DNA of 53,647 bases, filler included, from Bipalium vagum (Eukaryota): NCBI GenBank assembly GCA_037834085.1. It is 3 parts of 3 records of this genome, joined end to end, with 100 filler letters (N's around TTAATTAATTAA, not from the genome) between each part and the next. Parts side by side here need not be neighbours in the genome. Positions count along the whole stretch, not along the records: positions 37,969 to 53,647 come from JBBMKC010152565.1; 2 more parts are not named here. One strand, written 5' to 3'. Below are positions 1 to 52,459 of the stretch, one piece after another (position 1 is the stretch's first letter; the number at the start of each line of letters is the position of its first letter). Below the pieces are notes generated by a model, which was not told the DNA's origin, made no database searches, and saw only the letters and a program-made list of their open reading frames with translations. The position numbers and the translations under genes are program-made.

Positions 1-1110
1 GTTGTCCAGTATGAAATTGCGGATTTTTTATATTAATTTTCAAATTAAAGTTAATCACAAACGTTAACAATAAATTGCTTGTTTATATATAATAAATTAA
101 AGAGTAACTTTCAAACTTTAATATAAATATAAAAGTAATCAAATTAATTTAAAGTAAAAGTTTTTTATCGTTCTTTACTAGGCATGGTTGATCAACAAAT
201 TCGAGTATGCATATTATACGAGTTAAAACTTAACCACAATGCATCAGAAGCAACTCGAAATATTAATGCTGCATGGGGTGAACGTATTATAAGCGAAAGA
301 ACAACACAGATATGGTTCAAAAAATTTCTAGACCGAGACCTAAGTCTCCAAAACCAAGACCGCGGAAGACCCAATTCCCTCTTAAATGAAGCCCAATGAA
401 GTCAGCTGTCAAAGAAAATACTCGAACAAATGTGAGAGAACTTGCCCAAGTTCTCAAGGTGTTCAAATCAACAATTTCCACCCATCTAAAAGGGATTGGT
501 AAGGCTAAGAAGCTTGATTCATGGATTCCTCATGATTTAACAGAAAATCAACAGAAATATCGATTGCAAATCTGTTCGTCATTAATAAATCGGAACCAAA
601 TTGATCCCTTTGTGTCTCGTATTATAATATGCGATGAAAAGTGGATTATGTACAACAATCGTAGACGATCAGCGCAATGGTTAAATGCTGATGAGAAGCC
701 AAAAACCATGTCTAAACCAAGCCTTCACCCAAAGAGGACTATGATAACTGTGTGATGGTCTGAGGATGGCTTAATACATTACAATTTCTTGAAATCAGGT
801 GAAACGATTACCTCACAGTCATACTGTCAAGAAATTGAGGCTATGCGAACAAAGCTGATTTAAAAACAACCAAGTCTTGTAAACCGAAAGGAGCCGATCA
901 TGCTTCAGGATAATGCAAGACCCCATGTTTCTAAAGTGACCTTACAAAAATTACATGCCTTACAGTACGAAGTTTTACCTCATCCAGCTTATTCCTCAGA
1001 TCTTTCACCTACAGAGTACCACCTAATCAAGCAAATGGATGCATTTCTGGCTAATAAAATTTTCCAGGACCAAGATGCCATTGAAAACGACATCGCTCAA
1101 TTTTTTGATT
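1..1110 (+). mobile_element. Mariner (DD34D) element with decayed transposase; 5' TIR at the window edge, 3' end truncated
   Basis: TIR-like gttgtccagtatgaaattgcggatttt at 1-27. ORF pieces 184-399, 396-755 and 900-1175 join into a transposase with an HTH (WFKKF...GRP), WIPHDLT, ICDEKW, QDNARPH and HPAYSSDLSPTEY. Frameshift near 396 and in-frame stops near 753 and 861. Confidence 0.93.
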
Positions 1111-1199
1111 TTACTTTAGGCATTTATTATACCAAAATGTGCCAAAGCACTGAAAAGTTTATTAGTAATTTGTAATTATTGTGGTCGCTTTATCAAGGG

Positions 1200-1930
1200 A
1201 TATGCCAATATTTCGAGACCGTCAGAACAATTGTGTTGAACAAAAAAATGAAAAAACACATGGGTGGATAAATGGGAATAGGTAATAAAAATTATAAACA
1301 GCTTTTACCATCACATTCGCATTAAGGTATCCAAATTTAAAGAGAGCTTATTTTGGATATAGATATTAACTTAGCCGCAATTGGGGAAACAAAAAAGAGT
1401 TACAAAAATGTCTAAGTTAGTACATTGCATCACTCGCATTACTCGCAGGAATTAATTGTGATGCACTACTTCAGCAATCACTTCAGGCACTACTTGTACG
1501 GCAAAAAATTTACAAAAAAAAATTTACAAAAGAGCTAATGGTTTATAACAGGTATTGACTTTCCAAAAAGTTGTGGTTACGCTATAACCTTAAAATAATT
1601 ATATTAGGTACTTTGAAAAGAGACCGACAAAATAAACTGTAGAAAGCCATTGACAATGAAGAATTCACTTTACATTGGAAATGACAATTTTCTTCCAAAA
1701 TTGTTCTTTGGTATCTCTTATTCGATTGTCGACCAGTTTTTGAGAATTCTGTCCGGCTTCTATCACCATTTCTGAATCGATTGAAACATACTTTGTACTG
1801 AGCCTCACTCAATCTATTCTACATAAAAATTCATGTATTTTTAGATGATCAATTATTGTACTTGAGCTCTGATCAAATTATTGTAGTAGACAGTGTCTTA
1901 TGACTTATTTGCATCCATATTTTGATATTT
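1200..1930 (-). mobile_element. Degenerate mariner relic, opposite orientation to the first
   Basis: ORF 1582-1812 begins SEAQYKVCFNRFRNGDRS...GRQ, matching the mariner N-terminal HTH (WFxRFxxG...SGRP). The rest is heavily decayed and boundaries are approximate. Confidence 0.6.
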
Positions 1931-2899
1931 TAAAATATTTTTAGCAACAATGTAATTTAACACAAAATAATAAATGTTACTCGGTTCCAATTTTTCTTCA
2001 ATCTTGTTTCGATTTTGTTTCGATCTAACTGCAGTTCTTCCAATGTCGTCAAAATTCAGCTTCGCATCAACTCAACTTGTTTTAATTCCTAAATGAACTT
2101 TCCTAAATCACCTGATTTCAACTCAAGTTCTTTTTCAACTTCTAATCACTTAACTCAACTTTGCTCTGACTTATTTCTTATTTAGTTTTACTCAAATTTC
2201 AGTTTTGCTTCTGACTGTGATAGCTCAACTATCTCTCTACACAGAAGTTTTCAGATATTCTCTACCAGTCACTCAACGATCCAAGACAGCATTGCAGTCT
2301 TAAAAACTCAAAATCTTCGTTTTTCTCCCTTTTTCATTAACGAATTAGACTGAGCTAAATAATTAATTTATTTCTCATGTCACCATCTATTTCCCTTTCA
2401 TTCGGCCATCTCACATTGGATTCATAAAAGCTCTTAATTTTAGTACAATCAATGGAAAATAAATTACTGTTTTTATTAGCAACATTGCTAATTCAGTTTC
2501 CAAGATTTTATTATAGTTTTTTACATTGTGATTATTATTTTTTGTATGATTATTTATATTATATTTTACTAAAAAATGTAGATTGTTTGATGCAAAGCTC
2601 GAAATCGACATAAGCCCAAACTACACCATCAATATTGTACTTCTTTATATTATACCATTCATTTTAATTATTACTACTCATTAATCATTACTTTTGTAAT
2701 TAACACATTGGTATTTATCTAACAAATCGCGCTTCATCAAAAAAATTTGCAATGGATCATATAAATGAATTAACAAATCTAATTACATGAATCAAACATA
2801 CTAAATTTCGTTAACCTTACTTAAATTATTAAATGAATTAAGACGTAAATATTAATATAAAATAAAATAAAAATGTTAAAATAACTTAACTATGTACTT

Positions 2900-3390
2900 T
2901 AAAAGCACGAGAATAATTTGGAAATATTACTATAAATTATTAATGTTGGCTGGCCAATCAAAAAGACTAAAATCCCTTCCCAATCAGTCATCTAATCAAG
3001 TATTTGATACAAAATCCCAAAATCATCTTTTACAACCAAATACAAATGAGATCACTGATTCCTCTGGTAAAAACCACCAGCGAAAAACAGACTCCACTAC
3101 AAAACGTATTCGCCTTAAACATTATCACTCGTAGATCCACAAATAAAACAACTTCAAATACACCGCACACATACATGACCAGAAAGACACGAAAAACTGG
3201 CCAAGAATGGGGAAGTTGTCACCTAGCTGACAATGCAATCTGGTCTCAATGGGAATCATCGTTGATCTTTGGCCTTTGTCAGCTTGAGCCACTATTCCTG
3301 TGATCTGTATACCCTATCTTTGTATATTCCCTATTTTTATATCAATTAATCAATTTATTTTCGTTGATTTATATAGAACTTACGTATCAC
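2900..3390 (+). mobile_element. Possible 3' end of an LTR retrotransposon (integrase tail, PPT, short LTR)
   Basis: Remnants YLIQ and RLKHYH resemble integrase C-terminal motifs. Purine run aagaatggggaag is followed closely by tgtcacc (~3217), with a candidate ...tcaca end near 3390. Confidence 0.3.
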
Positions 3391-3899
3391 ACCGCAAATC
3401 CCTTACTATAGAAAATATATAGAAAAAACAATAAAATAGAGACCAAAACATGCAAATTAATTGTAAAATCTTTGAAAAAAATTTTCAAGGCAAAACTGTA
3501 TTAATAAGTCATTTAAAATAAAAAAATTACAATGAATAATTAAAACATTATGAAAAACATTATAATAAACATTTAAGCAACTACCAAAATATTAAACTGA
3601 TTATTTTGATTATAATAAAGAAATCTTCCATTATGAATTTTAAAAATATGATCATAATATTGACAATTTTAAAGATAGTAAAATTGAATTAACTACAGAA
3701 ACTAATAATAGAAATATTCACAATTTTAAAAGAGAAAAAATGAAAATATTAGAAAAATACTTTTAAGTAAGTAATAAATTTTTATAATAGATATTAATAC
3801 AATGTAGTTATGAAAGAAATGTTTCTGGAGAAAAACAAGAATTATCATCTTCATATTATTCTAAACCAGAAAAATAAGAAATACACTTTTATCAAATTT

Positions 3900-8899: not shown

Positions 8900-9990
8900 A
8901 AATATTTTTATACAATGACGAATGATGAGAGTGTATGAAATTTAGTAACAACCCACCATAGGAATGGTAAGACACAAGAATAAATTTATCAACCTCTAGT
9001 GTATACTGTACAAAATCTCACTATTTACAAGTGGATTAAACTTTTAATTGTGTTCTCGAAACTCATCTGGACGGCTAAGAATTGTATGAACAAAATCTTT
9101 TGTCGCTAAAATCAAACGAAACAATATAGCAAACAAGCAATTGATATCAGCTAAAACATTAGTCATGGAGTTACACTGTTCTCGAGGAAGTGTTGCTCAT
9201 GCTATACATGATGACTTGGCATTAAAATGCTATATGTGAATCATAGTACCTCATCTATCTGAGTCTGACATTAGTCGACGAAAAACGAGTTCTTATTGGT
9301 TAAGAAAAGATTCTAAGAGGAAACATTAAAGAAAAACATGTTTAGTGATGAGAAACGGCTTGATGCATATGGTCAATGGAATCCTAAAAATGACGGCATT
9401 TATGCTGCCTCAAGGGAAAAGGTAAATCAATAAGATGATCTTTACCAAGAAGAAAGTGATTGTATCAGGATACAACAGAACTCGTATTCTTAACTGCAAA
9501 AAAATCATTTAATTCAGAATTTAAAATAAAACTGTGGAAAGAAGTTACTAAGAAACGATTTAATCTATCAACAGGATGATGCCACTTGTGACACAAGCAA
9601 AGAAACCATTGAAGCAATAAAATGCTGGTATTTCATTTGTTTCTTCTAATCATTGGCCACCGAATTCACTGAATATAATTCTCTTGATTATTTCTTTTGG
9701 GACGGAGTAGCGCAGAAACTTAAACAAAAAGTTCAAAACCGTGGAGAGATGATAAGAAAAATTAAGCAAACAATTAACGAAATTCCTTTAAATGTGATTT
9801 TTCACGCCATTGATTCCATCCGACAACGAGGTTCGGCTGTAAAAAAAACCTTGGGAGATTTAATTAAACGTTGTTTTAACTAATTAAAGTATTGATTATC
9901 TTTCTGTAATTACTTTTATTTGTTTTAACTATCATTATCCATTTCATGTAAATCGCGATTAGAAGGTTTCTCCTTCCTTATTGACCGACC
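8900..9990 (+). mobile_element. IS630-Tc1-mariner relic of DD37D/maT type
   Basis: MFSDEKR (~9338), YQQDDATCDT (~9566), and a WPPNS../DYFFW motif (9654-9700, frameshifted). This matches the FSDEK / QQDGAPxH / WPPxSPDLNPLDY pattern. Confidence 0.75.
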
Positions 9991-10140
9991 GTTACCATGC
10001 TCCGTTGTTAGAAAGAAAGAGGGAATTAGTACAAATGAGTTTATTGCATATAAAAGTTAACTTCAGAATAGAAAAGTATTTTTATATCACATAATTCAGC
10101 GATTGTGTTATTCTTTGACATTTCGTTAATAAAAGGTGAT

Positions 10141-11205
10141 CTATTCTTGAGCTGAAAATGATTCTGTTGCATTCGACTTGATTTCGGGAGTTGTGGACGT
10201 ACCGGAATTGGTGGACACTTTAGGAATGGTCTTTGTGGATGATATATCTATTTTTTTCAGATCCGTCTTAGAATGTCTAATATAATTCGATATATCCATG
10301 ATAAACTTGTATACGTAACGTTTTCCAGCAGTTTTTTCGATTATGTGCTTATCGTAATAATAACGAAGTCCTCTACTCAGTTTCTCGTAATTCATTTTCG
10401 GCTTATTTTTACGCAATCCCCATCGTCGGGCTACTTCGTCAGGTTCTTTGAGCTTGAATTCATAACCATTACCTGTCCAAGATATGAACTGTTCAGATGA
10501 TGGATTACATAATTCTCCCAATAAAAATTGCCATAGTTGAATAGGACCTTTGTTATATTGATCTGAATTGAGAAATATAATAATAATAAAAAAAATAATA
10601 AAATAATAATAATAATAATAAAAGTTAAATATTTAAATAAATCTTAAGAAAATCCAGATTCTACTAATTAAGATATAATAAAAACAATTTTTCTTTTGAA
10701 AATTTTGAAAATAAAATTAATTTTTTTCTTTAATTATTAATAATAATTATACCTTTATTATTTTCGGTTTTCGTGGAAATATTTGGTTCACTAATATCAA
10801 ATTTTGCGCTTTTGTTACTGGTAGATGCTAAATTGGATTCGTTTGATTTTATTTTGATTTCATCGGAATTATGCTAAAAATATTTAATCAAAATGTTATC
10901 TTATGAAAAATCAACCCATTAACCACTTACGTTTGACCAATCAGGTTGTGTAAAATTAGAGTCTGAACGATTCCAGCCTTGCTCGTTGAAGTTAGAGGTG
11001 GAAAGGTAAGGGTTTTGTGAGTTGTATGAATGGTTATGGTAATCACCATTGTAATACATTTCTGCTGTTTGTTGGTTGGCATAAGAGTCGTTGCAAAATT
11101 TCGGGGTAGTATTTGGAAATGCAGTTAAATAAAGAGACTCAGTGGTGGATTCAAAATTCGGTTGTGGCTGTGTCACTAAAAAAATAAATAATAATAATAA
11201 TAATA

Positions 11206-11253
<48 letters not shown>

Positions 11254-13269
11254 TATAATAATAACGATAATTGTAATTATAATTATAATAATATTTTTAA
11301 ACGAGCTCATACCCTTACCACAATAATTTTGAATTTCCTGTCCATCTATCCCAGTTGTAAGACTGGGAATTTCTAGATAAGAATTAATATTGTTCGGAAA
11401 CCAAGTTTGGTCAGACGATGTTGCTAGGTTATTAGTATTTAGGAGTGTCCAACTATGAGGATGGTATTGCTGATGTAAATGAATTATCGAGCTAGTATCC
11501 AAAATGTTTCTTATATCTTCCTGTGTTATCTCTTGTATAAATTGACCTTGATGAATATGCCCCAAAGGTTCCGGATTGACATAACATTCCTGTTTCACAA
11601 AACTTGACGTTGAACCTAATAAAGAAATTGTTAACCAGAGTGTCAATATACTTAAGTATTATTTACATTAATTACAAGTGAAAGGTCATTTATCGTTTCC
11701 CAGGTTCAATATCAAACAAAATATAAGTTACACATGGATATTGAAAAGCTATTATCGTTCAGTGTTTCAATATATTGACCTTATATCAATTGTGCATTTA
11801 AGCCTTATCGACTCACAATTAGTGATACAAGGTAAACAGTTTAAGATAACAGTAATATTTTGCCCCATGTGGCAGAAACCATTAACTTGCTTAATACCGA
11901 TTCTCCTTGTCTAGACATAGATAAAGGGAAGTGTACACCAGCTGGCAATGTTACAAATGCAGATGCAGTCCAACGTATAGCGAGATTAATGGCACGGGTG
12001 AAAAGAGTATTACATTGTTTTCTGTTTTATGCAGATTAGACAACAACAAAATTGGATTTGGGAAACAGATCTTCACACTTATCTCCCCACATTGTTGATA
12101 TAGAGGATTTGTTATTTCGTATACCTTTACCCATTATTGCACGAAGACATGAACACTTATTTCAGTAATCTGCCAAAGTCCGAATATTCATCAAGTATAC
12201 ATTTGTTGTGAATCAACAATGCATTGGTCAGTAATGTATACAAAATAGCTTCGCTTACAGAGGAGTTCGTTTACTTTATTCTGAAGTATTTTAATGTAAA
12301 CTTAATAATAATAATAATAATATTCATCATAATCATCATTGTCATCATTGATTATTATTTTTCTACAGGTGTTTGTTATTATCACTATTATATGTTCATA
12401 AGGAACGTTTCAATGAGTGAAATTCTTAGGGAAATGATCCCAGAAATTATGGGCTCGAATGTTTTTAAAAAATAAATAAAATAAAATAAACAAATAATAA
12501 AGAAAACAGAATTCAAATAAAATATTTTTCTCCAATACATTTTTATCGTGCTAGAATCAATAAAAAGAAAATCAATGAAATCTGAAATGAAGTCTGGAAT
12601 TACTTAAAATAGTTTCATTAATTTTGGTACTTAAAAATTGATTTTAAATGTTTTAACATTCATTACATTAACACGTAAAACCCAGAGATCGTGGTGAGAA
12701 CATAAAATTGCAATTGTGAACGAAAGTAATTGAAGTGTGCTTAACATCCTACCTTGAACGTAAACAGGCTTCTCTTCTTCTACATTTGGGAACTTGTTGA
12801 TCATGTGAATGTTTTTCTGAGTATTAATGTTCGATTGGACATTGATCGATTCTGATGGAAGTAAATAAGAGCTATTGCCATTAACTAGGTCCTGATAACT
12901 AACTGGAAATGTTTGAGATAGATCTTGAGCATAAATGTCGGGATTTGATTGATCAAATTGGGGGATCCCGAACAAGTTCAAGGCTGGTAATATTGGTATC
13001 TCAACTCCACCAACAACTTGAGGATTTGTATCATAGCCCGCATGACTGTAATGAGGACTGTTGCTTTCTGAATCAATATAGCTGCTATCAATATATGAGC
13101 TACTACTGCCTTCTTTGGTCAAAGGACTGAACTCACACCACATCAGATAATCTTTATTTCCGGAATTCAAATCCGGTGTTTGAAAATGATTGTTTTGTAA
13201 ATTTATCATTTTCCAGGAAATGAATTTTACGAAATGAAACTTGGTATGATACATATTGCCAGAACTCAT
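10141..13269 (-). CDS. ets-1: ETS-domain transcription factor, Ets-1/Ets-2/pointed class (~533 aa); exons 13269-12753, 11615-11319, 11175-10931, 10873-10753, 10562-10141
   Basis: Last exon encodes [13 protein letters not shown]...[61 protein letters not shown], diagnostic of ETS1/2/pointed. All four introns are GT-AG with matching phases (1,1,0,1). The start codon is uncertain (13269 or 13209). Confidence 0.9.
11187..11292. repeat. (TAA)n microsatellite in the Ets intron
   Basis: Long TAA run; it explains the poly-I/poly-Y tail of ORF 11176-11646. Confidence 0.95.
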
Positions 13270-14224
13270 TTCATTGGCTGCGGGTTCAAAACGCGATGGC
13301 AACAGCCAATGAAATTATTAGCACTAGCAGAGAACTAGAAGTATTATCTAGGCCACATTTATTTTTGTTTGTATTTGTCAATTGTTAATTACATAAACAA
13401 TGAAAACATAAACAGCAACCGAAATTAGTTAAATGCAACACGTGCACCGTGATTAAGTATATAATTTTGATAATAAAATACTAAAATAATAGTTGATATA
13501 ATTAACCAATAAAATGAAATAAAAAATATTAAAATAACATGAACGGAATTCGTGTGCACTCTAAAGGTTATCCTAATGGTATAATGTTATGACAATTACA
13601 TAATACATTTTTTGGTATGGAAACAGAGCCATTTGAAAAGCAATGTCAAAAATACTTTGAAAATTAAAATAAAATAAGTGAAAATAAATTTTGAGACTAT
13701 TTTTTAGCGATCAATCGGGCTTTTATGGATTTTTAAACTTGTTAGAGTTAAATTAAACCGAAAAGATTATGAAGAATTTATTGTTTTAAATTTTAATCAA
13801 TTAAAAAATTGTTTCCGTAATAATATTGTTATTGGTCCAAGTCAATTTACTTTTATTATAAAGATACCATTGTTTAAAATAAANNNNNNNNNNNNNNNNN
13901 NNNNNNNNNNNNNNNNNNNNNNNNNNNNNNNNNNNNNNNNNNNNNNNNNNNNNNNNNNNNNNNNNNNNNNNNNNNNNNNNNNNNNNNNNNNNNNNNNNNN
14001 NNNNNNNNNNNNAAAAATTCATAATAATAAATAATATTTATGAATAAATTAAATAATTTTTAAAATAAATTTTATCGGTTTATCTGAAAATAAGATAATT
14101 AAACAAAACTTATATTACCTTATTATTAATAATATATTGATTATTATTATTATTATTAAAATTATTATTATTAATATTATTATCTTAATTAATATTAATT
14201 TCTTTTCTGTTATTTTTTAATGTC

Positions 14225-18149: not shown

Positions 18150-18813
18150 TTTCATAGCAGACTAGTAACTGGTGATGAGACATGGATTTATCGATACGAT
18201 CAGGAAAGTAAAATCCAGTCTAAGCAATGGTTACCCAAAGGATCAAGTGGACCAATCAAATTCAAAGCTGAACATCAATGAAGAAGGTTATGGCCACTAT
18301 TTTTTGGGATTCTGAGGGTGTAATCCTGGTAGACTTTCTCGAGAATCAGCGGACAGTTACTGGTAGGTACTACGAAGAGGTTTTGCGAAAACTTCATGCT
18401 GCACTTGTAAAGCAACGCCCAGGGAAACTTCATCGTCGAATTTTGTTTCATCATGACAATGCGCCAGCACATTCATGTAAGTTATCCTGGGTTGTACTTC
18501 GAGAATATCGTTGGGAAATACTCTCGCATCCACCATACAGTCCTGACTTGGCTCCCTCAGATTTTTTTTTGTTCCCCGAATTGAAAAAAATATCAAGGGC
18601 ATTCGTTGGGAAACAATATTGGAATTCAAAAGAGCTGTTTTGGATTGGTTCAAAACAAAGGATAAAATTTTTATAGAAATGGTTTAAACGCTGGCGACAC
18701 CGTATGGAAAAGTGTTATGAGTTAGATGGTTCATATGTAAAAAAATAAATTTGTACTTTGTACTTTGTTTTGATTTGTATGATTATTCCGGGGAATTTTT
18801 GATTCACTCTCGT
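18150..18813 (+). mobile_element. 5'-truncated mariner (irritans-like) with 3' TIR
   Basis: RLVTGDETWIY, KKVMATIFWDSEG, FHHDNAPAHS, HPPYSPDLAPSDFFLFP (DD34D), with frameshifts near 18277 and 18590. Candidate TIR ccgggaatttttgattcactctcg followed by TA. Confidence 0.92.
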
Positions 18814-19720: not shown

Positions 19721-20584
19721 TTTTATTGGGAAACCCCTCAATCTCTGCCGATATTTCCGAACGATTACAGTCAGTCAAGGTTTCGAGTGACAAAAGATGG
19801 TTATCTTAACATTATCAGTGCTCAATCCTCAGATTCCGGTAAATATACGTGCAACGTTCATTCGGCTCTCGACGTCAATCATAGATCCATATGGCTTGAA
19901 GTTTCCAAGCACCAGTTAGACATTTATCCCATCATATCTTTACCTGCTCAAAATCTGACAGTAATCAAAGGGTCCAATATCAATTTGAGATGTGAAGTCA
20001 TTGGAGAGGACATAATCAATATACTGTGGTATATTGGTTTAAATTTCAAAGAGAGACTGATAAAAGATTGGCAAATCTCCTTTCCAACAAAAGAGAGTTT
20101 ATTTATCATTGATTCTGATAGTAAAAGAAACACGAATTTCTATACTTGTGAAGCTATCAATGAGCAAGGTCTGAAATCGAGTTGGACGGCTTTTGTCGAT
20201 GTTGTAGACAATCAGACATTGGCAAGCATCAAAAGCATTCTTGAACTACCCTTACCGCCGGTAGTGGAGCCGCCAAAAAATATCAAATCCAATTCACTGG
20301 AATTAGTATGGTCATCAAATTATAATGCAAACATTCTGATTTCATATTGGGTTGAATATGTTTATTTTGGATCGAAAAACGGATGGGAAATTTACAAAAA
20401 GGACTGGCCTCACAATTTCATAACAGTGGACAACCTCAAGCCGGATACATGGTACCAGTTTCTGGTTCGGTCCAAGCACAATGGTGGCATTGGCAGGGCC
20501 AGCGTGCCAACGGAATATGTGAAAACGAAAAACTTTATGAGCGATGAACCATATTCCGGAAATGTGGGCTTTCAGTTTGATAAT
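19721..20584 (+). CDS. robo: Internal exon of a Roundabout (Robo)-like receptor: part of Ig4, Ig5 and the first FN3
   Basis: Acceptor ttttccag at 19720, then FYWETPQSLPIFP...RFRVTKDGYLNI...DSGKYTC (Ig), PIISLPAQNLTV...LRCEV...ILWY...YTCEAINEQGLKSSWTAFVDV (Robo Ig5-like SWxA motif), and FN3 SLELVW...YWVEY...GW...VDNLKPDTWYQFLVRS. Putative donor gtaggt at 20585; the ORF otherwise runs on to 20674. Confidence 0.8.
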
Positions 20585-21499
20585 GTAGGTTGTTGTTCTT
20601 GTGAAGGTCGTGTTTTCCAACATCAAAAAAATGCGACCAAATTATTTGATCAATATTTTTGTAATGAATATTAAAACCATGCCAATTCTCTTGACCGAAT
20701 CCTAAATATCATCATCATCAGCGGGAACGGTTTTCGTTATTAATTCAATGCTAATTTCGCTGATAAAAGTTGGCTGTGTGATAAAATTTCTCTTTTTCTT
20801 ATCTCACCTTTTTTAATTTCATATAATGATTCTGGATCAGATTTTATTTAATATAAACAAACGACTTTTTCACTGAAAACATTACCGTCTGCAGAGGTTT
20901 TTTTTAGTATTTCTTTTTTTTTTTTTAATAAGAACATACTTTTTCTCTCGACGCATGGCCATATACATAATATGCAGGGATCCAAAAATTAAACTTTTCC
21001 TCTTTTGAACGGGAACTTTTTCAATTTTGTATATAACATATTTTTTATGGCACTGATAAGTAATAAAATTATTATTAGTTTATCATGACTTGTACTGTAT
21101 TATTTTATATTTTTCTATATTTTTATATTTTGCGCAAACCACTAAATGATAATATTTATTGTCGAATCGTTTTAAGACTGTTCTGAGAAATGACGTTTGA
21201 CCACGATAATAATATCAATTTGATAACAAACGAATAATGAGGGGAAAACTTTTTTATTTTATATTATGGTTTTCATGATGGAAAAATTCAACGTAAATAA
21301 AACAAAGTTTGTGATACATTGTCGTTAGGTTCACAATTTGTGAAAGTGCCTATTTTATAAATGGATCTAAAGTCACAATTTAACTGAAATTCTTTTTTTT
21401 TAATTAGTACATTTTAAATTAAAGATAAATAGTTAATTATTTCAAAAATATGAAAATTTATTTTTGTTTTAATGCTTCAAACAAATAACGAAAATTCAA

Positions 21500-39779: not shown

Positions 39780-40900
39780 GATTTTAATGCGTATGATGAC
39801 GAAATACCAAGACCAAGGATACTTTTCAACAGACGTCGAATATTAGGCTGTATTGCATTTTCCCCTTGTGTCATTTCATTAAAAGTGATGAAATTGTTCC
39901 GAAAAACAAAGATCATTTTAGAGTGAATAAAGACATGATAAGCATTCAATTTCTGCCAAAGGTAGAGAATCCTATCAGCGATTGTTATCAGCTCATGTAT
40001 GATTTTTGCAAACAAAGATCTCGGTGGAGAATGGAGATTTTCACAGAAATCAACACCCAAGTAGCGATAAGTTTCATCAACCATCATAGTAGCAATAGGA
40101 GATTCACCAATTCTCAAAAGAAGTGTATTTTGAACTTGAGGGACACGAACAAAAGCACACTTTGAGGGCCGGAATTTCAATTGGAGCCATGATGATACCT
40201 GAACTGCGCGATCCAGGAGGTCGTGCATATGTGGACGACTAGTAGCTAAAAGTACGACATCATCTGCATATGCAAGCGCACTCAACCGATATTCACGAAT
40301 CAGTACACCTCCGCTCAACACCTGATCAAGACTATTTAAAATTGGATTCATTCAAATATTAAATAACAACATCGATAAAGAACAACCTTGTCGAACACCA
40401 ACGTTAACATGATCGAGAGCAAACACCCATTTGCCGAAGACAACCAGTAATGAAGAAAATATCAATACTGCCGAAAGTATTAGCTACATCGAGAAAAGCA
40501 ATATTCAGAGGCATATTCAGTTCTCTCTGATGTCGATCAATTAAGTCTCGAAGAAGAAAATTGTGTTCAGAACACCCATTGAATGGATCAAGGCTCTTTT
40601 GCAACGGATGTAAAAGATTATTGGCATTCAACCAACCAGAAAGTTGTGAAGATAAAGCGGAAGCGAATATCTTGTATAAACATTCAAGTGAAGCAACTGG
40701 TCGCCATGAATTGATATCATGGTACTCTTCTATTTTCATGGGTTTCGGAATAAGCAAATTAGAGAAAGACTTCCAGCGAGAAGGAGGAGATAAATCGTCA
40801 ATTATTCTGTTGAACAAAGGGCAATCAATTTTTAGCAACGGATCACAGTTTTTGATGTCAACATACGTGATGTTGCTAATGCCTGGAGCAATTACAAAAC
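39780..40900 (-). mobile_element. Non-LTR retrotransposon reverse-transcriptase fragment, RLE clade (R2/NeSL/Utopia-like)
   Basis: APGISNITY...DP, LLIPK, SWRPVA...YKIF, LQKSL...GCSEHNFLL, AFLDVANTFGSI, GVRQGCSLSMLLFN, LAYADDVVLL, LKFRPSKC, YRYLG. One stop codon and an internal deletion near 40410; truncated at both ends. Confidence 0.88.
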
Positions 40901-41526: not shown

Positions 41527-42645
41527 AGAATTTTTAAGAAAATCAGTGGAGAGATATTCCCTAATTGGTACAAAAACAGCACTGAGTAACTTAAATCAAC
41601 GGGAAAATCATTTATCAACTATTTTTAATAAGATAAATTCAGTCATGACATTACAATTAGTCTTTATTCGGATATCAAATGATTGGATTGAAATGAAAAC
41701 GTTATTGTAGCAAATGAAGAGGTGGGATCACGTTAGAAAAATAAAAAATAAAAGCTAATAAATATATTTATTTTTATTTAAATTCACATTATTAGACAGA
41801 TTTAAGAAAGTTTTTATATGAAATTTATATTGCTTTATGTCAATAAAAGGACAAAACATCAAAATAAAAATTGATGAAATCTGTAATCCACGTATCATGG
41901 TTTCATAAATTATTTTCAAATAAGAAAACTTTCATCACGAAATTCACGAATTTCTTTAGAAAAATAAGCCGCCTAAATATAAAGAACATTGAGACTTATT
42001 TTTACAATCATTATTTTTAATCATTATATGTACAATTTTGTTATTATTATAACTATTTTATCTGAAATATTGAGTTGGTGTTTTGTACGTGCCGGAACAG
42101 TTTGTAGAATCGAATGCTTGTAATGATATCCTCGTCTTATAACTGATATAATCATAAAGATCCACCTTGAATTACTTAAAATCATTTGATTACATCTAAA
42201 TTGATGAATTTGTTTTAAATCAAATCGATAAATACTCTTCGTCATGACAACTCTAGTTCTCATAAGTTGTGTCAAGAAAATGATTTCGCGAACACTAGGA
42301 ATCTAGAATTAATGACATATAGACTACTCATCTGATTTGTTCTCTTGTGATTTCTTTTAGTTTTCAACAATTAAAAAGAAATTATGTGGTGCTTTTTTTA
42401 GCCTGGAGTATCAATTGCAAAATTCGAAGTTTTTTATCTGAAGTTCCAACTTTACAATGAAAAAGTGCTTTGAAAATTGAATCGATCGCACTCAAAAAAG
42501 ACTCATTTTAAAACATCAATGTATTTTAGGTTTGGGTTTTTTACTAATACTAAATTTCACAAACTTTCCCAACAGCCTATATATTTTGCCGATTTTCAAA
42601 AAATACAATTGTATTTAATATATTAAAATATATACTGTATATATA

Positions 42646-42946
42646 CAGTGAAACCTGTTAATGTTGAGCACCACTGGGACCGAACATTTTTCTCAAAATA
42701 TAGATGGTTCATGAAACCAAAAGTCAATACTTAATTTTTAGTAATAAAATTTTATTAACAAAATCGACAAAGGCGATTGCTTTAGCGAAGAATTTCTTTC
42801 GAGCTGTTTTATTTGAATGGATAATTTATCAAGAGACATATTTTTGAAGCATCTTACTTCTTTGATATTCCAATTATGAGTGTTTTCAATGTTTCACCTT
42901 CAGAACTTGTGGCCAAAAGAGGTTCCCAAATTAACAGGTTTCACTG
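42646..42946. mobile_element. pogo/Tigger-type MITE, 301 bp
   Basis: 17-bp perfect TIR CAGTGAAACCTGTTAAT / ATTAACAGGTTTCACTG, with TA on the left and CA on the right. Confidence 0.85.
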
Positions 42947-42989
42947 CATATATAATATATTTAATATTTAATCAAACATTAAACAGTTA

Positions 42990-43680: not shown

Positions 43681-44249
43681 TTTATATTATAATTTAGATT
43701 ATTTAAATTATGATTTTAAAAAAATTTCTTATGGTCTGTTTAAACATTTTTTACCAATGTTCTCAACACTAAAATTCCTTTCCATGAATATTTTCGGTCA
43801 TACACTTTCTACAAGAGTATCTATCTCAACCTTCGACTTTTACTGGATTTTTTTTAATGTGAAAGTATTCATTATCTTATTTCGTCATTCTCTTTTTATG
43901 AAATTCTGTTCCTGAAAGAGTAAAATCTTTTAGTTAAATATCATTTCTGTGGGATTTATTACAATTCTCTTTTAGACCATAGAATTAAAAGTAATTTTTT
44001 TACTGAGGAATTTTATTAACCACTGTACTATTTTGTACTTAGTGAATATCTAACGTTATCAAATCGCGTTTGATTCTGAATTTTCTTTTTATTTAGTTAT
44101 TAATATTCTAACGACAATTGGTCTTAATTCAACTTCTTTGTAAAATCTTTTTTCTTGAATCAAATACATTTTTACAGTCTACGTTGTTCTAATGTTTAAA
44201 AATTAGTTATAATATTAATATTAATAATTATAATATAATAATATTTGTA

Positions 44250-45764
44250 CTATGCTGTCCGAAAAGTTCCTAGCCTAGTCAAGAAAGAACAATGAAATCA
44301 AACAAAAACATTTATTTAAATCAATATAAAACCCTTGTAGATCAATACAACGATACCAGTGATTTTCAATATTTTTCTATGCCTTCTAAAAAATACATTG
44401 ACCGAAATCCTCTACAATAATGCTCTGTTTCCTATTCTACTTCCTCATTTGAATTGAATTTCTTGCCGGAAAAAAATCTTTGAAATTTGGAAATAAAAAG
44501 AAGTCACTGGGTACCAAGTCCGAATAATTTCGAGATTGAGATATCAATCCAAAGCCTAATTCTTCTAATTTTGCTAGAGCAACAAGTGATGTGTGAGAGG
44601 GCACATTGTTATGATGAAACAACAATTTTTCTTCGTCAAATGTGGTCGAATTCTCTTGAGTTCATCCTTCAAAAGATCAAGCAACGCTGCATAATAAGAT
44701 CTCTGAAAGTTTCCCCTTTCTCAAGATAGTCTATGAGTAAAATACCTTTGGCATCCCATAAAATTGTACCAATAATCTTATCAGCCTTCTTTTAGATTTT
44801 CAGTATCTTCTGCGCACTTTCCACTTCTTCAAGTGTTGAGTAGACTCTGGAGTGTAATAATGAATCCACGTTTCATCGCAGGTGACGTATCGACACAAAA
44901 GTTGTATGGGTTTTTTTAAAGTTTCGAATCATTTCTCTCCGAATCATTAACACGTGCTTCTTTTGATCAATAGTTAATGAATACCGCACCTATTTTGCAA
45001 TCATCTTTTTCATATTTTACGACATATGTCTTTTAAAATACTCATAACCTCAGCAATTCGACTAATTTTCACTTTTCGGTCTACCATTACCATTTTGTGT
45101 ATTAGACTAGTATTTTGGTCAGTTGTTCTATCAATTGGACGACCACTACGACATTCATCTTTAGTGCATTTGTGATCTCGTTTGAAATCTGAATATCAAT
45201 TTTTAATAGTGGAATGCGATGATACTGATTTCCCATAATGCTTATCCAAACTTGCTTTGGTTTCCCGAAGTTTTTCCATTTCATAAAATAATTTCATTAA
45301 TATCATAAATTTATATTGGTTCATTTTCAAAAACGCAGCTATTAAAAATGTTAGTTGAAAATTAATCTGAGATATCTGGATTTGAACGTACAAAATTTTA
45401 TTTAAAAAACAAGTTTTTTCTTTCACAAACTTAATCGTTTTCACATAAATGTGCGCCTATTTTGGCTTTGCTTCATCTTCATTTTGGAGCATGTCATCAT
45501 CGTAGTCGTCGAAATTTTCAGCAGCATCATCAGACAAGCACCACAGGCACATGGACTGCTCTGACCGCTGAGCTACATCCCCAGACTAATTTTCAATTTA
45601 TCTCACAAAAAATATTTAAATTGATTGCATAAAAAAATATTTTTTCAAAATCACAAAGATTTTATATTCAATTATTTAAAAGATTGTTCTTTAAAATAAG
45701 GATGTAAATTTTTACTTTTCCTCGTTATTAATGGTTAAGGCCAGGAACTTTATGGACAGCCTAG
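44250..45764 (-). mobile_element. Full-length irritans/Himar-like mariner with both TIRs, dead transposase and a 259-bp insertion in the 5' leader
   Basis: TA-flanked TIRs ctatgctgtccgaaaagttcctagcct and (reverse complement) ctaggctgtccataaagttcctggcct. Transposase from ATG 45324: MNQYKF..ETKASLDKHYGKS..STIKN*YSDFKR, VTCDETWIHYYTPE, FHHNNVPSHTS, YSDLVPSDFFLFPN. Confidence 0.93.
45349..45607 (-). mobile_element. tRNA-cored mini-element, copy 2 (259 bp, internal cargo, perfect 5-bp TSD AAAAA)
   Basis: Minus strand reads TGTGAGATAAATTGAAAATTAGTCT-GGGGATGTAGCTCAGCGGTCAGAGCAGTCCAT...[~150 bp]...GTTCAAATCCAGATATCTCAGATTAATTTTCAACTAACA. Exactly five A's at 45344-45348 and at 45608-45612. Confidence 0.78.
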
Positions 45765-45803
45765 TATAATATATTTGAAAACAAAAATAAATTATAAAAA
45801 TAT

Positions 45804-48800
45804 TTAATAACCTGTTTTTAACCTACAGTTTGAATATGTGAAAATTTTTAAATTTGTGCAGCATTTTTTAAAAAGTTTTATACTTTTATCTGTTATATTC
45901 GCACATCCATCTAAATGTAGTTCCTTAAAGAATATTCTTAAAAATAAAAATAGTTTAAATTTACAAATTACTTCCAATTCCACACAATTTTCGGATTTTA
46001 CAAAAATGCTCAATCCTTTATCCGAAATCTAGAAATAAGAGATTTAGATCATCGCTCAAAGTACAGCAAGTAATTATATTTATCATAAGTTAAGGTACAA
46101 AGTTCATTTAAATTTATGTATAAGTTGTCAAATTGTGACATCGATTTCATGTATATTGTGAAATGTATTCATTATAGTATGTATTAGTACTTTTTATAAT
46201 TAAAATCAATTTAAATAGTTTGAATTTTAAATGCAGGAGCATTTAAGAAAACGTTGAAAATGTTATTTCAAATAATGACAACCGAAAGAGAATTTCTTTG
46301 AATGATTTTTTAATAGAATTATATTGAAAATTAAATATTTTTAACAGAATTTCTAAAAGACGCTAAAAAAAATTATTTGGCTTATAAAAAAACGAACTGT
46401 GAAATTAAAAATATTCAATAGAGTAGTAAAACAAAGTTTTTTTTTTATTGAAAGTAATCCAGGAAAAAGGATTTCATTTAGTAAATTGACTTTATGAAAA
46501 GAATTGCCTCAAAATGTATTGATTTATCGTCAAAGCAAGAAAACAGCAAAAATCCGAATAAATCAAGATAAAGTTTTTAATTTTAATTTTTCGTCAAAAT
46601 GCATTGACATTAACATTGGTTGGACTAATTATATCCCCAGGACCAGTGGCAAGAGTAATGAGTGGCAATTCATAATGATAAAATTGAATAATAATGATAA
46701 TAATAGGGATTTATAAAAATATTGGTTTAAGGTTACTTTTTGGAGATTGGCAAGATTTTAAATGATGGTGTATGAATTATTTCTAAAGAGTCGAAAGGGA
46801 CTGTCTTTAATCCTGACGATCTCAAGCATTTTTTACACAGTCATCTAAAGCACGTTGAATTTTCAGGTTTTTGATAATTGAAGACAGAAAAATTCACTGG
46901 ATTATTCGGGTTATTTAAAATAGCGGACAATGTAATCAGATAGTTAGATCTTTCATATTAATTAATAAAACGGATTCGAGTTCAAAAAGTATCTATTCAA
47001 ACCAAAGTCTTATGTAATCTCTAACTCATTTATTTTATTTTTTGTGTTGAATCCCTTATCCTGATAGTCACAATATTGTTGTCATTACTTAAATAAATAC
47101 AATTTTCGAACTTATATTTTTATTGACCCTCGTTTATTCAAATAAATTATTATATTTTTTATGGATGTTATAATTAATGATTTTTAGAAACGAATTAATC
47201 TCCCTAATTTTAAATAAAGCCAAGTTTATTCACCAATCTGCTGGTGATAAATTTTTTCCTAAAGGAATTTATTAAAATCTTTTTAAAAAAGATTTATGGC
47301 AACCTAAATATTCTTGTACTGTATATCTTTAACATAATTTGTGCTCTCTTTTATAATCCAAAGATCATCAATTAAATTCAGATGTGTGTTTCATGACAGA
47401 AAATCAATAAAAATTGTCTTGCATTCTTAAAAATAAATCAACAGACTTTTGCTCTGTCAATATAAAAATAAATCTATTAAAGATAGACATGATTCTTCTT
47501 TAAGTCTTTCAGAATTTGATAATCAAAATTAAGTTTACATCTTTGTATTTTTAAAGTTAGCTTAAATCCTCAAAACATGGATTGCAATACCTTAAAGAAC
47601 AAAATTCTCACATCAGTTTTTTCCAGACTTAATGATTTAATTTTGGATCTATGATCGCTAAATGCTTTGAGGCTGCTATCTGTAATTTTGGGACATCCGC
47701 ATAAATTTACAACTTGGATCTTGGCGGAGTTCGCAGCTAAAACTACGAAGGGATTGTCAGAAATTATGGCACATCGCTTGAATTGCACATTCTGCAGATG
47801 AAATAATTTACTAAAGACATCGATCAGGCCTTAAACAGAAAGATATATTATTAAATCGGTGAAAATAGTAACCTGAGTCTTGCAAATCGTATCGGTAACC
47901 CTTAATCGAATCTATGCACAATTCCCTAAGATTCACGCAAAATTTTAGCTGACTCAATAAATTATTGTCAACATCACAAAAAGACAAGTCTATTTTGGTA
48001 ACTAGATCATTTCCGAGCTAAGAAAATATAAATATTTCAATAATGTTCTATAATTGATTATTTTTACTTTCATCGTGAAGTCTAAAGTTTGTTAATATTT
48101 ATATAACCAAGCTTACTAAAGATTTGATCTATATATCTATTATAATTTTTATGTTCCGTGTAAGATTAAGTAAAGTTATATGTAACAATATGCTCAAAAT
48201 TGGTTCTCTTGTCAGTAAGATCCTCAATAATCTCGTAACGATAATGTTTTATCGGTTTTGGATTTATTAATTTTATCTTTTTAAGAAATGTGAAAAATAA
48301 TTCTTTTCTCAAAGATTCACAAAACAAACTTTTCTATCCGTAATGAAACTTTAAATCGACATATATGGTCTCAATCCCTAACAATTAATCCAATAAGCTG
48401 AAATATTTCTAATGATATTGAAAGTCTTCAAACAATGAAAATAGCAAAGCGTCATGGATATGTTGTATAAATCTTGATGTTGAAGATGATCATTAATTGT
48501 AAAGTAAAATATTAGCCCGAAAATTTGTTTTTGAAATACTGAAATTGAATAGAAAAACCAGAATAAGATTATTTGTTTAAACCACTTTTTTCCATTTTTC
48601 ATTTCCAGAGTCATTACTTTCTTATCGACAAATTGTAATAATTATTCTTCACAATCCTGCATAAAACTTAACTTTCTCTAATTGAGATAGGTCTTCAGAG
48701 ATACATCATTAGTTTCCAGCCAAACTCGTTCTATCTTTCCTGGGACTTCAAAGATATGTGTGGTTTAGCATTGACGTGCTGAAATAATTTTTTCAGCCAA

Positions 48801-50499: not shown

Positions 50500-50599
50500 C
50501 AGTGTAACCCGTTTAATATCACCTCGCTTAATATCACGACCCGGTTAATATCATGACTTTTTCTGTAACGGACGCCGTGATATTAAGCGGGTTGCACTG
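50500..50599. mobile_element. 100-bp pogo/Tigger-type MITE with TA target duplication
   Basis: TA-CAGTGTAACCCGTTTAATATCAC ... GTGATATTAAGCGGGTTGCACTG-TA, with three TTAATATCA copies at the left end. Confidence 0.88.
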
Positions 50600-51674
50600 T
50601 ATTATTATTAACCAGTATAATCCTTTTATCTTACAATATCTTGTATGATTTTGATTACTAATTACATTTATTATTCTTAACTATGTACCAAATGAAATTC
50701 CTGGTTGTCTGTTATGGAGAAATATATTCCGGAATTTTTCTGGATTTCATTTTTAAAAAAAATCTATGATTTTGATCTCTTTCAAAAAAGATAAAAATAT
50801 TAAGTGTTTTCATTTTGACTATTCTCATCAAGGCATCTGTTCTCTTGATATTAATATCCAAATCTTCGATTTTACAGACATTGCGAAATATGTTGCTATG
50901 TCTGTCCTCTGCCATAAATAGTTTATCACAAATAATAGAATTTCAGTAATGATATCTTCCTATATCAAATATATCCCTGTTAAATGATATCATCAACATA
51001 ACATAGCTGCTTCCAGCATGTTTACCGAAACAAGACATGAAACCAAAAATCTCTTTAACATAAAAACCCATTTTAAAAAATCAACAAAATTAGTATGCAT
51101 ATGATGATATTTTATACTAAGAGTTCTTGCAATCTGGTCAGACGAGTACTGTTGACTGTTATCAACAAAGGTTGTAAAAGATGAGTAGAACAATGAAAGA
51201 TATTGGAAAGTCATTTTTCTGCATAATGCGTAGTGTTATGTAAAAAACAACAAAAGAAACATTGAATGTCTTACCTATATCTTATTCACCAGATATTGGT
51301 CCATCTAGTTAATATTACTTGTTTAGGTCGATGACACATTGTCACTCTAAAAACCTTTTCTACAATTTCAAAAATGTCAAAAACTGAATTGATTATAAAG
51401 CTGCTTTACTGATTTTACTTTTATCTTTCAAACTGTATAGTAAACACTAACAACGAAAGTAATTATTTAACAAAGTATTAATCAAAGTGATCGCAAAAGT
51501 AACTTTGATTTAGTTGAACACAACTAACTCCATTTCAAAACTGGTTGACACGAACAGAAATGACATATTTGGATAGTTCATGAAAAAGTTAAGAACCACC
51601 GTTTTAATCCAATTAAAGCAAAAAATATTTTTTGAGTAATCTTTAAACAAAATATATTTTTCATTAAAACACAA

Positions 51675-52459
51675 TCATTGATCCATTAAGGTTCCTTTAT
51701 ACCGTTTGGCTCTCGCTTCCTCATTAGCCTAAAATAAATCAATAATTAAATATCTGTCAAATGAAAAAATACCTCGTCAACTAATCGCTTTTTTATCAAA
51801 CCCTTTCGAATCATTTCCCTTTCAATGATCTTGGCATTGACTGCATATGAGTCTGCAATCTCTTTAGCTTCAAGTTGCTCTTCTTCATCTTCAATCGTTG
51901 ACACTGTGATAGAACTGAATTTTCCCATTGTTCTTGTGGTTTTCGTTATGGTAATTCTGTCGTTGTATGTCTCTGAATCATTGGTTTCTGTTTTAACGGC
52001 AACTTGGTTGTTGACATTTATTGACACTGGAGTTATCAGTTCATTCTGGTACTTCAGTGCATCTTTCAAAATAAATCCAATCTACAAAATTTGCTTTCTA
52101 AGGAAGATATTTTGTGAAATTCTTACCACTGGTTTCTCTTCATCGTGCTGATAGAATAAATACAATTCACATTTCTTACATTTTCTTCGATATTGTTTTT
52201 CAATACCATCATCCCATTTGATGTAATATTTTTCTGGCTTACTGGCTGTAATTTTATGTACATGTTTTTTCGAATCAATTACCAGAGATTTGTCTCGAGG
52301 CCTTTGAGGTAGCTTTATTAAAGGGCAATCAATGATAAGACATAATTGTCCACACAAACAATAATAATTATATAATGGACGATCACTGGTATATTCCTCC
52401 TTATTTTGTTCATCAGTAACAACTATCGGGTTTTTATTATTATTCTTTGTATTAGACAT
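51675..52459 (-). CDS. STEEP1: STEEP1/CXorf56 (UPF0428) homolog, 231 aa; exons 52459-52127, 52081-51773, 51728-51675
   Basis: [78 protein letters not shown] and terminal KGTLMDQ* match CXorf56. Introns are 45 and 44 bp, GT-AG, phase 0. Confidence 0.95.

Follow-up and report, generated by a model that had tools for sequence, protein, structure and literature searches.

Host mariner and inserted segment

The question raised by this locus is whether a 259-bp segment in the leader of a decayed mariner is a mobile element that arrived there after the mariner, to which class such an element would belong, and how it came to carry a foreign sequence. The segment was analysed within a stretch of Bipalium vagum DNA of 53,647 nt, filler included (the window). 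The main features are as follows.

44250-45764, minus strand: host mariner, decayed, TA on both sides, ATG at 45324
45349-45607, minus strand: element copy 2, cargo-bearing, 259 bp, TGT...ACA (contig loose ends at 45349 and 45607)
45608-45612, minus strand: upstream copy of the 5-bp TSD, T5 on the element strand (flank comparison)
45344-45348, minus strand: downstream copy of the 5-bp TSD (flank comparison)
45602-45607, minus strand: 5′ terminal short inverted repeat TGTGAG, integrase-type end (LTR end consensus in the available part of PMC3601003)
45349-45354, minus strand: 3′ terminal short inverted repeat CTAACA
45582-45596, minus strand: subterminal 15-bp inverted repeat, 5′ arm, which runs on into the tRNA acceptor stem
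45355-45369, minus strand: subterminal inverted repeat, 3′ arm, with a T4 run

The dimensions of the host given in the initial annotation were re-measured and agree: the mariner is 1515 bp long, is flanked by TA and has a leader of 440 nt ahead of the ATG at 45324. Excision of the 259-bp unit and one 5-bp duplication (259+5 nt) was recomputed and again yields a mariner of 1251 bp, with a leader of 176 nt. The TIRs are alike at 23 of 28 positions, the N-terminus matches the DNA-binding domain of SETMAR/Hsmar1 (E 2.8e-4), and the ORF is interrupted by stops and frameshifts. Two further mariner remnants with Transposase_1 matches, at 396-755 and 18156-18676, belong to other families; the protein of the latter is 34-52% identical to pieces of the host mariner.

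Ends of the element and length of the duplication

Copy 2 begins with TGTGAG and ends with CTAACA. These termini match at five of six positions and are followed by a 5-nt offset and then by the 15-bp arms, which pair at 14 of 15 positions and are set in from the 5′ and 3′ ends by 11 nt and 6 nt, respectively. The near-perfect terminal stem described earlier is therefore correct in its pairing but subterminal in its position, the real termini having gone unnamed. An equally long end stem was found in one of 7196 control windows of 259 nt. Folded as RNA, the whole unit shows no unusual stability (z −1.40; 13 of 200 shuffles did equally well).

A cargo-free copy with the same ends is present elsewhere in the window, outside every mariner detected there.

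37037-37149, plus strand: element copy 1, cargo-free, 113 bp, same ends as copy 2
37032-37036 and 37150-37154: TSD of copy 1, 4/5 alike (flank comparison)
37062-37134, plus strand: whole tRNA-like body of copy 1 (Rfam tRNA alignment)

Searches of the window by BLAST and with an nhmmer profile recovered copies 1 and 2 and no third. Copy 1 has 25 nt before the tRNA body and 15 nt after it, and the two copies are identical at 54 of 66 nt over the 5′ end. The best end stem of copy 1 is only 9 nt long, and its RNA fold is no better than those of shuffles (z +0.71).

On the element strand, copy 2 is flanked by T5 on both sides. The earlier caution that a poly-A duplication is weak evidence holds for this copy, where the run is T5/A5, but the duplication of copy 1 is of mixed bases (4/5) and backs a length of 5 bp, so that poly-A is not the sole evidence for the TSD. 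The flanks of copy 1 agree at 4/5 positions for a length of 5 bp, at 1/6 for 6 bp and at 0/4 for 4 bp, the last being the length expected of an animal Helenus element, on which the T run of copy 2 is uninformative. When 81 boundary shifts were combined with five lengths, all nine solutions that passed in both copies lay on the diagonal of element length plus 5; a 5-bp TSD in the same register is thus present in 2/2 window copies, the two copies from which the length was determined. As background, the left 5-mer of copy 1 is matched at four or more of five positions at 391 of 52,859 sites (0.7%), and the left 5-mer of copy 2 exactly at 1056 of 105,718 sites (1.0%). An alternative TSD of 6 bp, in which the final A is given to the target, also fits both copies; it is opposed by 123 contigs that retain the final A and by the symmetry of TGT...ACA.

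Copy number and mobility in sequencing-run contigs

The locus is contained in one public sequencing run, in which the flank 45579-46000 is identical (0 differences); since the window itself may derive from this run, it does not count as an independent sample. No RNA run containing the locus was listed, which says nothing about expression. Contigs of the run were aligned at ≥80% on 44000-46000, and 4027 records were placed. Contig depth, which is not equal to copy number, was 25-76 in the flanks, ∼510-3590 over the mariner and 412-546 in the leader beside the junctions; it rose to ∼1910-2592 in the cargo (bins 1910 and 2592), to 19,061 at the 3′ end of the element, where ∼40 nt are common to the short form, and to ∼207,000-278,000 (206,798) at its 5′ end. 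Division by the mean record depth of 23 gives ∼9,000-12,000 for the 5′ end, 86-109 for the cargo and 18-67 for the leader, values that are read only as a scale of thousands, about a hundred and tens of copies, respectively.

Loose contig ends coincide with both ends of the element (123 contigs at 45349; 212 at 45607 and 144 at 45608), and the flanks beyond them are unrelated to one another (agreement 0.43-0.45). At least seven mariner contigs (two alignment rows) match as far as 45608, lack the insert and pick up again at 45265 or 45292, the letters in between not being given; one further joint row, among those listed, is internal to the mariner. Because contigs depart precisely at either end of the element and these mariner contigs are without it, a high-copy family inserted into the mariner is supported. 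The boundaries of the 259-bp unit with its 5-bp duplication hold, and the proposal that the element was mobile after the arrival of the mariner is borne out by the TSD in the same register, the divergent contig ends and the mariner contigs that lack the insert.

The other explanation offered at the outset, spread by hitch-hiking inside a mariner subfamily, together with the possibility that the segment is an original part of the mariner, has the slimmest chance of the readings considered and is largely refuted as the main route. The leader beside the junctions has a depth (412-546) ∼4-6 times below that of the cargo (1947-2469) and far below that of the element 5′ end; hundreds of contigs depart at the element ends; at least seven mariner contigs lack the insert; and copy 1 is not located in any of the mariners detected. 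A few insert-carrying mariner copies are possible. The search for an empty site that had been suggested succeeded in so far as mariner contigs lack the insert, but no clean site with a single A5 was seen. With the mariner N-terminus as query, metagenomes gave 61 pattern matches and 0 confirmed relatives, and consequently no empty site was obtained from outside sources. Contigs from metagenomes, viruses and prokaryote genomes gave 0 matches to a 24-27-nt element pattern.

Within the mariner, at 44701-44820, four mariner-family contigs have 132 different letters versus 118 in the window, so that either the window copy or a subfamily deviates over that stretch.

tRNA core

The core of the unit is of tRNA origin. 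In copy 2 it is present in two parts.

45542-45582, minus strand: tRNA-derived 5′ half with the acceptor 5′ strand, the D-arm with the A-box (45575-45558) and a degenerate anticodon arm (likeness to copy 1)
45369-45387, minus strand: tRNA-derived 3′ part with the B-box (45387-45378) and the acceptor 3′ strand

The body of copy 1 scored 24.1 bits against the Rfam tRNA model (cut-off 29), with the anticodon stem unpaired, and presumably resembles tRNA-Ala. Copy 2 had no tRNA match in Rfam, ARAGORN predicted 0 tRNA genes, and the intact cloverleaf of a functional tRNA gene is found in neither copy. Copy 2, unlike copy 1, matches the patterns TRGCNNAR (A-box) and GTTCRANNC (B-box), in agreement with the initial annotation, which had described the A-box as better kept in copy 2 and the B-box as preserved beyond the cargo. 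The spacing from A-box to B-box is 46 nt without the cargo and 188 nt with it.

Cargo

Between the two parts of the tRNA lies a segment that is foreign to it.

45388-45541, minus strand: 154-nt cargo in place of ∼11-12 nt from the variable loop and the T stem's 5′ side (contig joints 45387 to 45542 and variant rows)
45457-45546, minus strand: acidic coding-like stretch of 29 codons, of which the first two fall within the tRNA half; stop at 45457-45459
45397-45409, minus strand: T6 run at 45409-45404 (Pol III terminator-like) and AATAAA at 45402-45397

At the joint 45387 to 45542 the window has 154 nt, versus ∼11 other letters in contigs. Cargo-skipping contigs account for 11 rows and at least 52 contigs among the 15 joint rows listed of 255, which makes the cargo-free form common. 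The edges of the cargo are without a TSD, and ∼12 nt of the tRNA are missing. Variant rows of the cargo comprise 30-38 contigs each, so it is multi-copy in the run; at four listed positions the window copy deviates from 87-99% of the depth.

The cargo frame contains 11 D/E in 20 codons, a composition equalled in 0 of 2058 control windows, and after the stop there follows AT-rich sequence with T6 and AATAAA. By these features the cargo looks like the 3′ end of an mRNA; a decayed GAT/GAC repeat or the end of another TE is a possible alternative. With the 29-aa acidic peptide, a weak query in such searches, 0 matches were obtained in PDB and 0 in Pfam; a protein collection gave two candidates, none at E≤10, and there was no usable Atlas match. 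Two identifications were rejected. For a snoRNA, the Rfam search over copy 2 gave eight sub-threshold matches at chance level, C/D snoRNAs included (best E 0.12); for the internal region of a TRIM, TGGTGC is found near the start of the cargo together with an 11-nt purine run, neither of which abuts an LTR end. An 86-codon open frame at 45199-45456, which leads from the cargo through the 3′ arm of the element to the mariner ATG and has no upstream ATG, is probably due to chance.

Irrespective of the class of the element, a cargo-free unit may have entered the mariner and then gained, at this locus only, a piece of a separate repeat (from a multi-copy gene, the end of another TE or a GAT/GAC microsatellite in decay). 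We regard this as a tentative possibility that carries some weight: the cargo is multi-copy, with 30-38 contigs per variant row, but the rows listed are silent on its continuation into the tRNA halves, and the window copy is the deviant one at the four positions mentioned. It is opposed by a depth that is high in each of the two cargo bins (1910; 2592), by the lack of a loose end at a cargo edge among the six rows listed (575 further rows), and by cargo edges that have no TSD and have cost ∼12 nt of tRNA.

Sequence context of the window

The window is AT-rich animal DNA with a GC content of 26.7%. Genes for an ETS-domain factor (10141-13302), an Ig-Ig-FN3 receptor (Robo/DSCAM-like; 19787-20674) and STEEP1 (52082-52459) identify the host as an animal; a search with STEEP1 gave a single match, at 56%. 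A TA-flanked hairpin of ∼100 bp at 50500-50601, with ends CAGTG...CACTG, is taken to be a Tc1/pogo-type MITE, and an inverted pair at 42615-42971 (82% over 61 nt) with TA-CAGTGAAACC ends is probably a pogo-like MITE of ∼300 bp. The broken reverse-transcriptase remnant (RVT_1) at 39746-40838 is presumably of the non-LTR type, as judged by its motifs. An identical 77-nt repeat that flanks a 100-N gap (31433-31686) is likely to be an assembly overlap artefact.

Class of the element

The reading that we favour, with a probability of about 0.55, is that copy 2 is a solo LTR left by a tRNA-bearing TRIM of the Helenus-like type, that is, by a miniature non-autonomous LTR retrotransposon. Fixed TGT...ACA ends combined with a fixed short TSD argue for insertion of the integrase type, and since a tRNA fills most of the 113-bp unit, the simplest parent would be a TRIM with a Pol III promoter in its LTR. 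The 113-bp unit, mostly decayed tRNA, would be this LTR, and its A- and B-boxes a putative internal Pol III promoter. A copy with the structure LTR-internal-LTR would be reverse-transcribed and integrated by the reverse transcriptase and integrase of an autonomous partner, the integrase using the TGT...ACA ends and producing the 5-bp TSD; recombination between the LTRs would then reduce this copy to one solo LTR, still flanked by the TSDs. Copy 2 would be a solo LTR of this kind, which had entered the A5 run of a pre-existing mariner leader. The 154 nt of foreign sequence may, most simply, have been gained by a template switch or by templated repair onto an mRNA-like 3′ end; in the available part of PMC5131818, LTR-mediated capture of mRNA is described as replacement rather than clean insertion.

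The available part of PMC3601003 gives an LTR end consensus of TGTTRNR...YNYAACA, with end repeats of roughly 7 bp; the ends of the element, TGTGAG/A...CTAACA, agree with it at 6/7 positions on each side. As expected for solo LTRs, no TGG lies within 17 nt downstream of either copy as part of a PBS, and no clear PPT precedes either copy. A second LTR was not found in the window (nhmmer profile; two copies only), nor an LTR-retrotransposon domain in the 8/13 window ORFs scanned, nor a high-copy internal region among the 15 joint rows listed of 255. Head-to-tail units occur in at least six contigs (one row; total depth 110, about a single copy each). All six resume at 45348, one T past ACA and with no T preceding; the post hoc chance of this offset is 0.0004-0.014 if the commoner offset class comprises 0-3 contigs (15 of 255 joint rows listed), and it gives a weak hint of a PBS that starts with TGG and of a PPT. 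What counts against a TRIM, besides these negative results and the 4-bp TSD of described animal Helenus families, is the 15-bp subterminal repeat, which is more MITE-like than LTR end repeats of ∼7 bp, and the T6 and T4 runs together with the 188-nt box spacing of the cargo form. T runs and a stretched spacing from A-box to B-box should hinder read-through by Pol III.

The closest known system is Helenus (TRIMp3), whose LTRs are 104-323 bp long, many of them 110-130 bp, and some families of which are known solely as solo LTRs with TSDs (Kojima 2024, PMC10886601). Like these, the element is a TGT...ACA unit, its 113 and 259 bp fall within the 104-323 range, a non-functional tRNA with A- and B-boxes fills most of it, the copy number is high (LTR-11_DR has 5575 LTRs, and there are thousands in zebrafish; PMC10886601), solo copies lie between TSDs, and 5 bp falls in the fixed range of 4-6 bp. 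By this analogy the element probably works like a Helenus solo LTR. It differs in its 15-bp subterminal stem, in the 154-nt cargo inside the tRNA and in its TSD, which is 5 bp here versus 4 bp in all those animal Helenus families whose TSD has been determined, fungal and plant families having 5 bp (Table S1 of PMC10886601). Elements of the Gypsy type with 4-bp TSDs have been proposed as partners of animal Helenus (PMC10886601). Four short motifs of the element were searched in the Helenus supplement (PMC10886601) and none was found, a comparison in which FASTA line breaks can hide matches. Ajax and Cassandra also have a Pol III-type RNA gene in the LTR, and Ajax is an animal element with 5-bp TSDs; theirs is a 5S rRNA gene, whereas that of the element is a tRNA (PMC10886601).

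The main rival reading, rather unlikely in itself, is that the unit is a MITE-like DNA element, in which a tRNA gene bracketed by inverted repeats is moved as a single unit by a Ginger2/TDD-like transposase and the cargo form is a Pack-TIR-like product of gap filling. A subterminal stem equalled in 1/7196 control windows is what such an element would show, the two copies in the window, like hundreds of contig ends, have the appearance of single units, and a DNA route would be indifferent to terminators in the cargo. In the available part of PMC2836005, Ginger termini are TGTNR, which the element follows with TGTGA and TGTTA, inverted repeats lie near the ends, and 5 bp is the TSD length for both TDD-4 and TDD-5; the 5-bp TSD of the element thus fits Dictyostelium TDD and not metazoan Ginger2, the metazoan Ginger1/2 elements being given there with TSDs of 4 bp and TIRs of 40-270 bp. 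The TIRs of the Ginger2/TDD elements are long and start at the termini, those of Ginger2 MITEs measure 16 bp and likewise begin at the terminus (available part of PMC3845634), and no tRNA core occurs in the descriptions compared from these two sources. In the element, by contrast, the inner arm sits 5 nt further in at one end than at the other, the end stem of copy 1 is just 9 nt, and an internal region of fixed extent is hinted at by the head-to-tail joints.

Multicopy Pack-TIRs exist in animals, according to the available part of PMC8277862. Both they and LTR-mediated retrocopies resemble the cargo form in that host-like sequence substitutes part of the element and can amplify with it; the available parts of PMC5131818 and PMC8277862 describe replacement of an internal ORF or of the body of a TIR element, whereas here part of the tRNA promoter of a 113-bp unit is replaced, and no parent gene was found. 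In the literature searched, a scope that left out most subscription papers and Repbase, we found neither a capture inside a tRNA-bearing LTR nor a tRNA-cored MITE, and Helenus came closest.

A tRNA-derived SINE, or a processed tRNA pseudogene, placed by target-primed reverse transcription of a LINE is highly improbable. SINE2 elements have a tRNA head at the 5′ end, an A-rich or repeat tail and a variable, longer TSD, and none of these features was found. The element shares with them a tRNA body with A- and B-boxes, and a non-LTR reverse-transcriptase remnant is present in the window (39746-40838); it differs, however, in that conserved sequence of 25 nt precedes the tRNA, the ends are fixed as TGT...ACA, a tail of the A-rich or repeat type is lacking, and the TSD is short and equally long in both copies.

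Doubtful, though less so than a SINE, is a mover of a kind of its own, neither SINE nor TRIM nor described MITE: a tRNA-cored single unit of ∼113 bp with integrase-type ends, a closing stem and thousands of copies, which has no second LTR, PBS or PPT, and of which a subfamily of about a hundred copies would have amplified a captured mRNA 3′ end within a split Pol III promoter. Most likely the class of the element is already described. As judged from the sequence, what would be new here is a TSD of 5 bp in an animal element, a stem that closes the unit and a cargo that is itself multi-copy.

Significance

Nesting in a mariner is ordinary in itself. If the element is a Helenus-like TRIM, it would add an animal family with a 5-bp TSD, which suggests that its partner is not one of the Gypsy elements with 4-bp TSDs, and foreign sequence would have been taken up within the tRNA promoter itself. 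A TSD of 5 bp may, in animals, be linked with BEL or Copia. tRNA-bearing families such as Helenus inflate the counts of tRNA pseudogenes in annotation. The coexisting short and long forms would provide a test case for the capture and spread of host transcript ends by elements with Pol III promoters, and for the need for a two-LTR parent.
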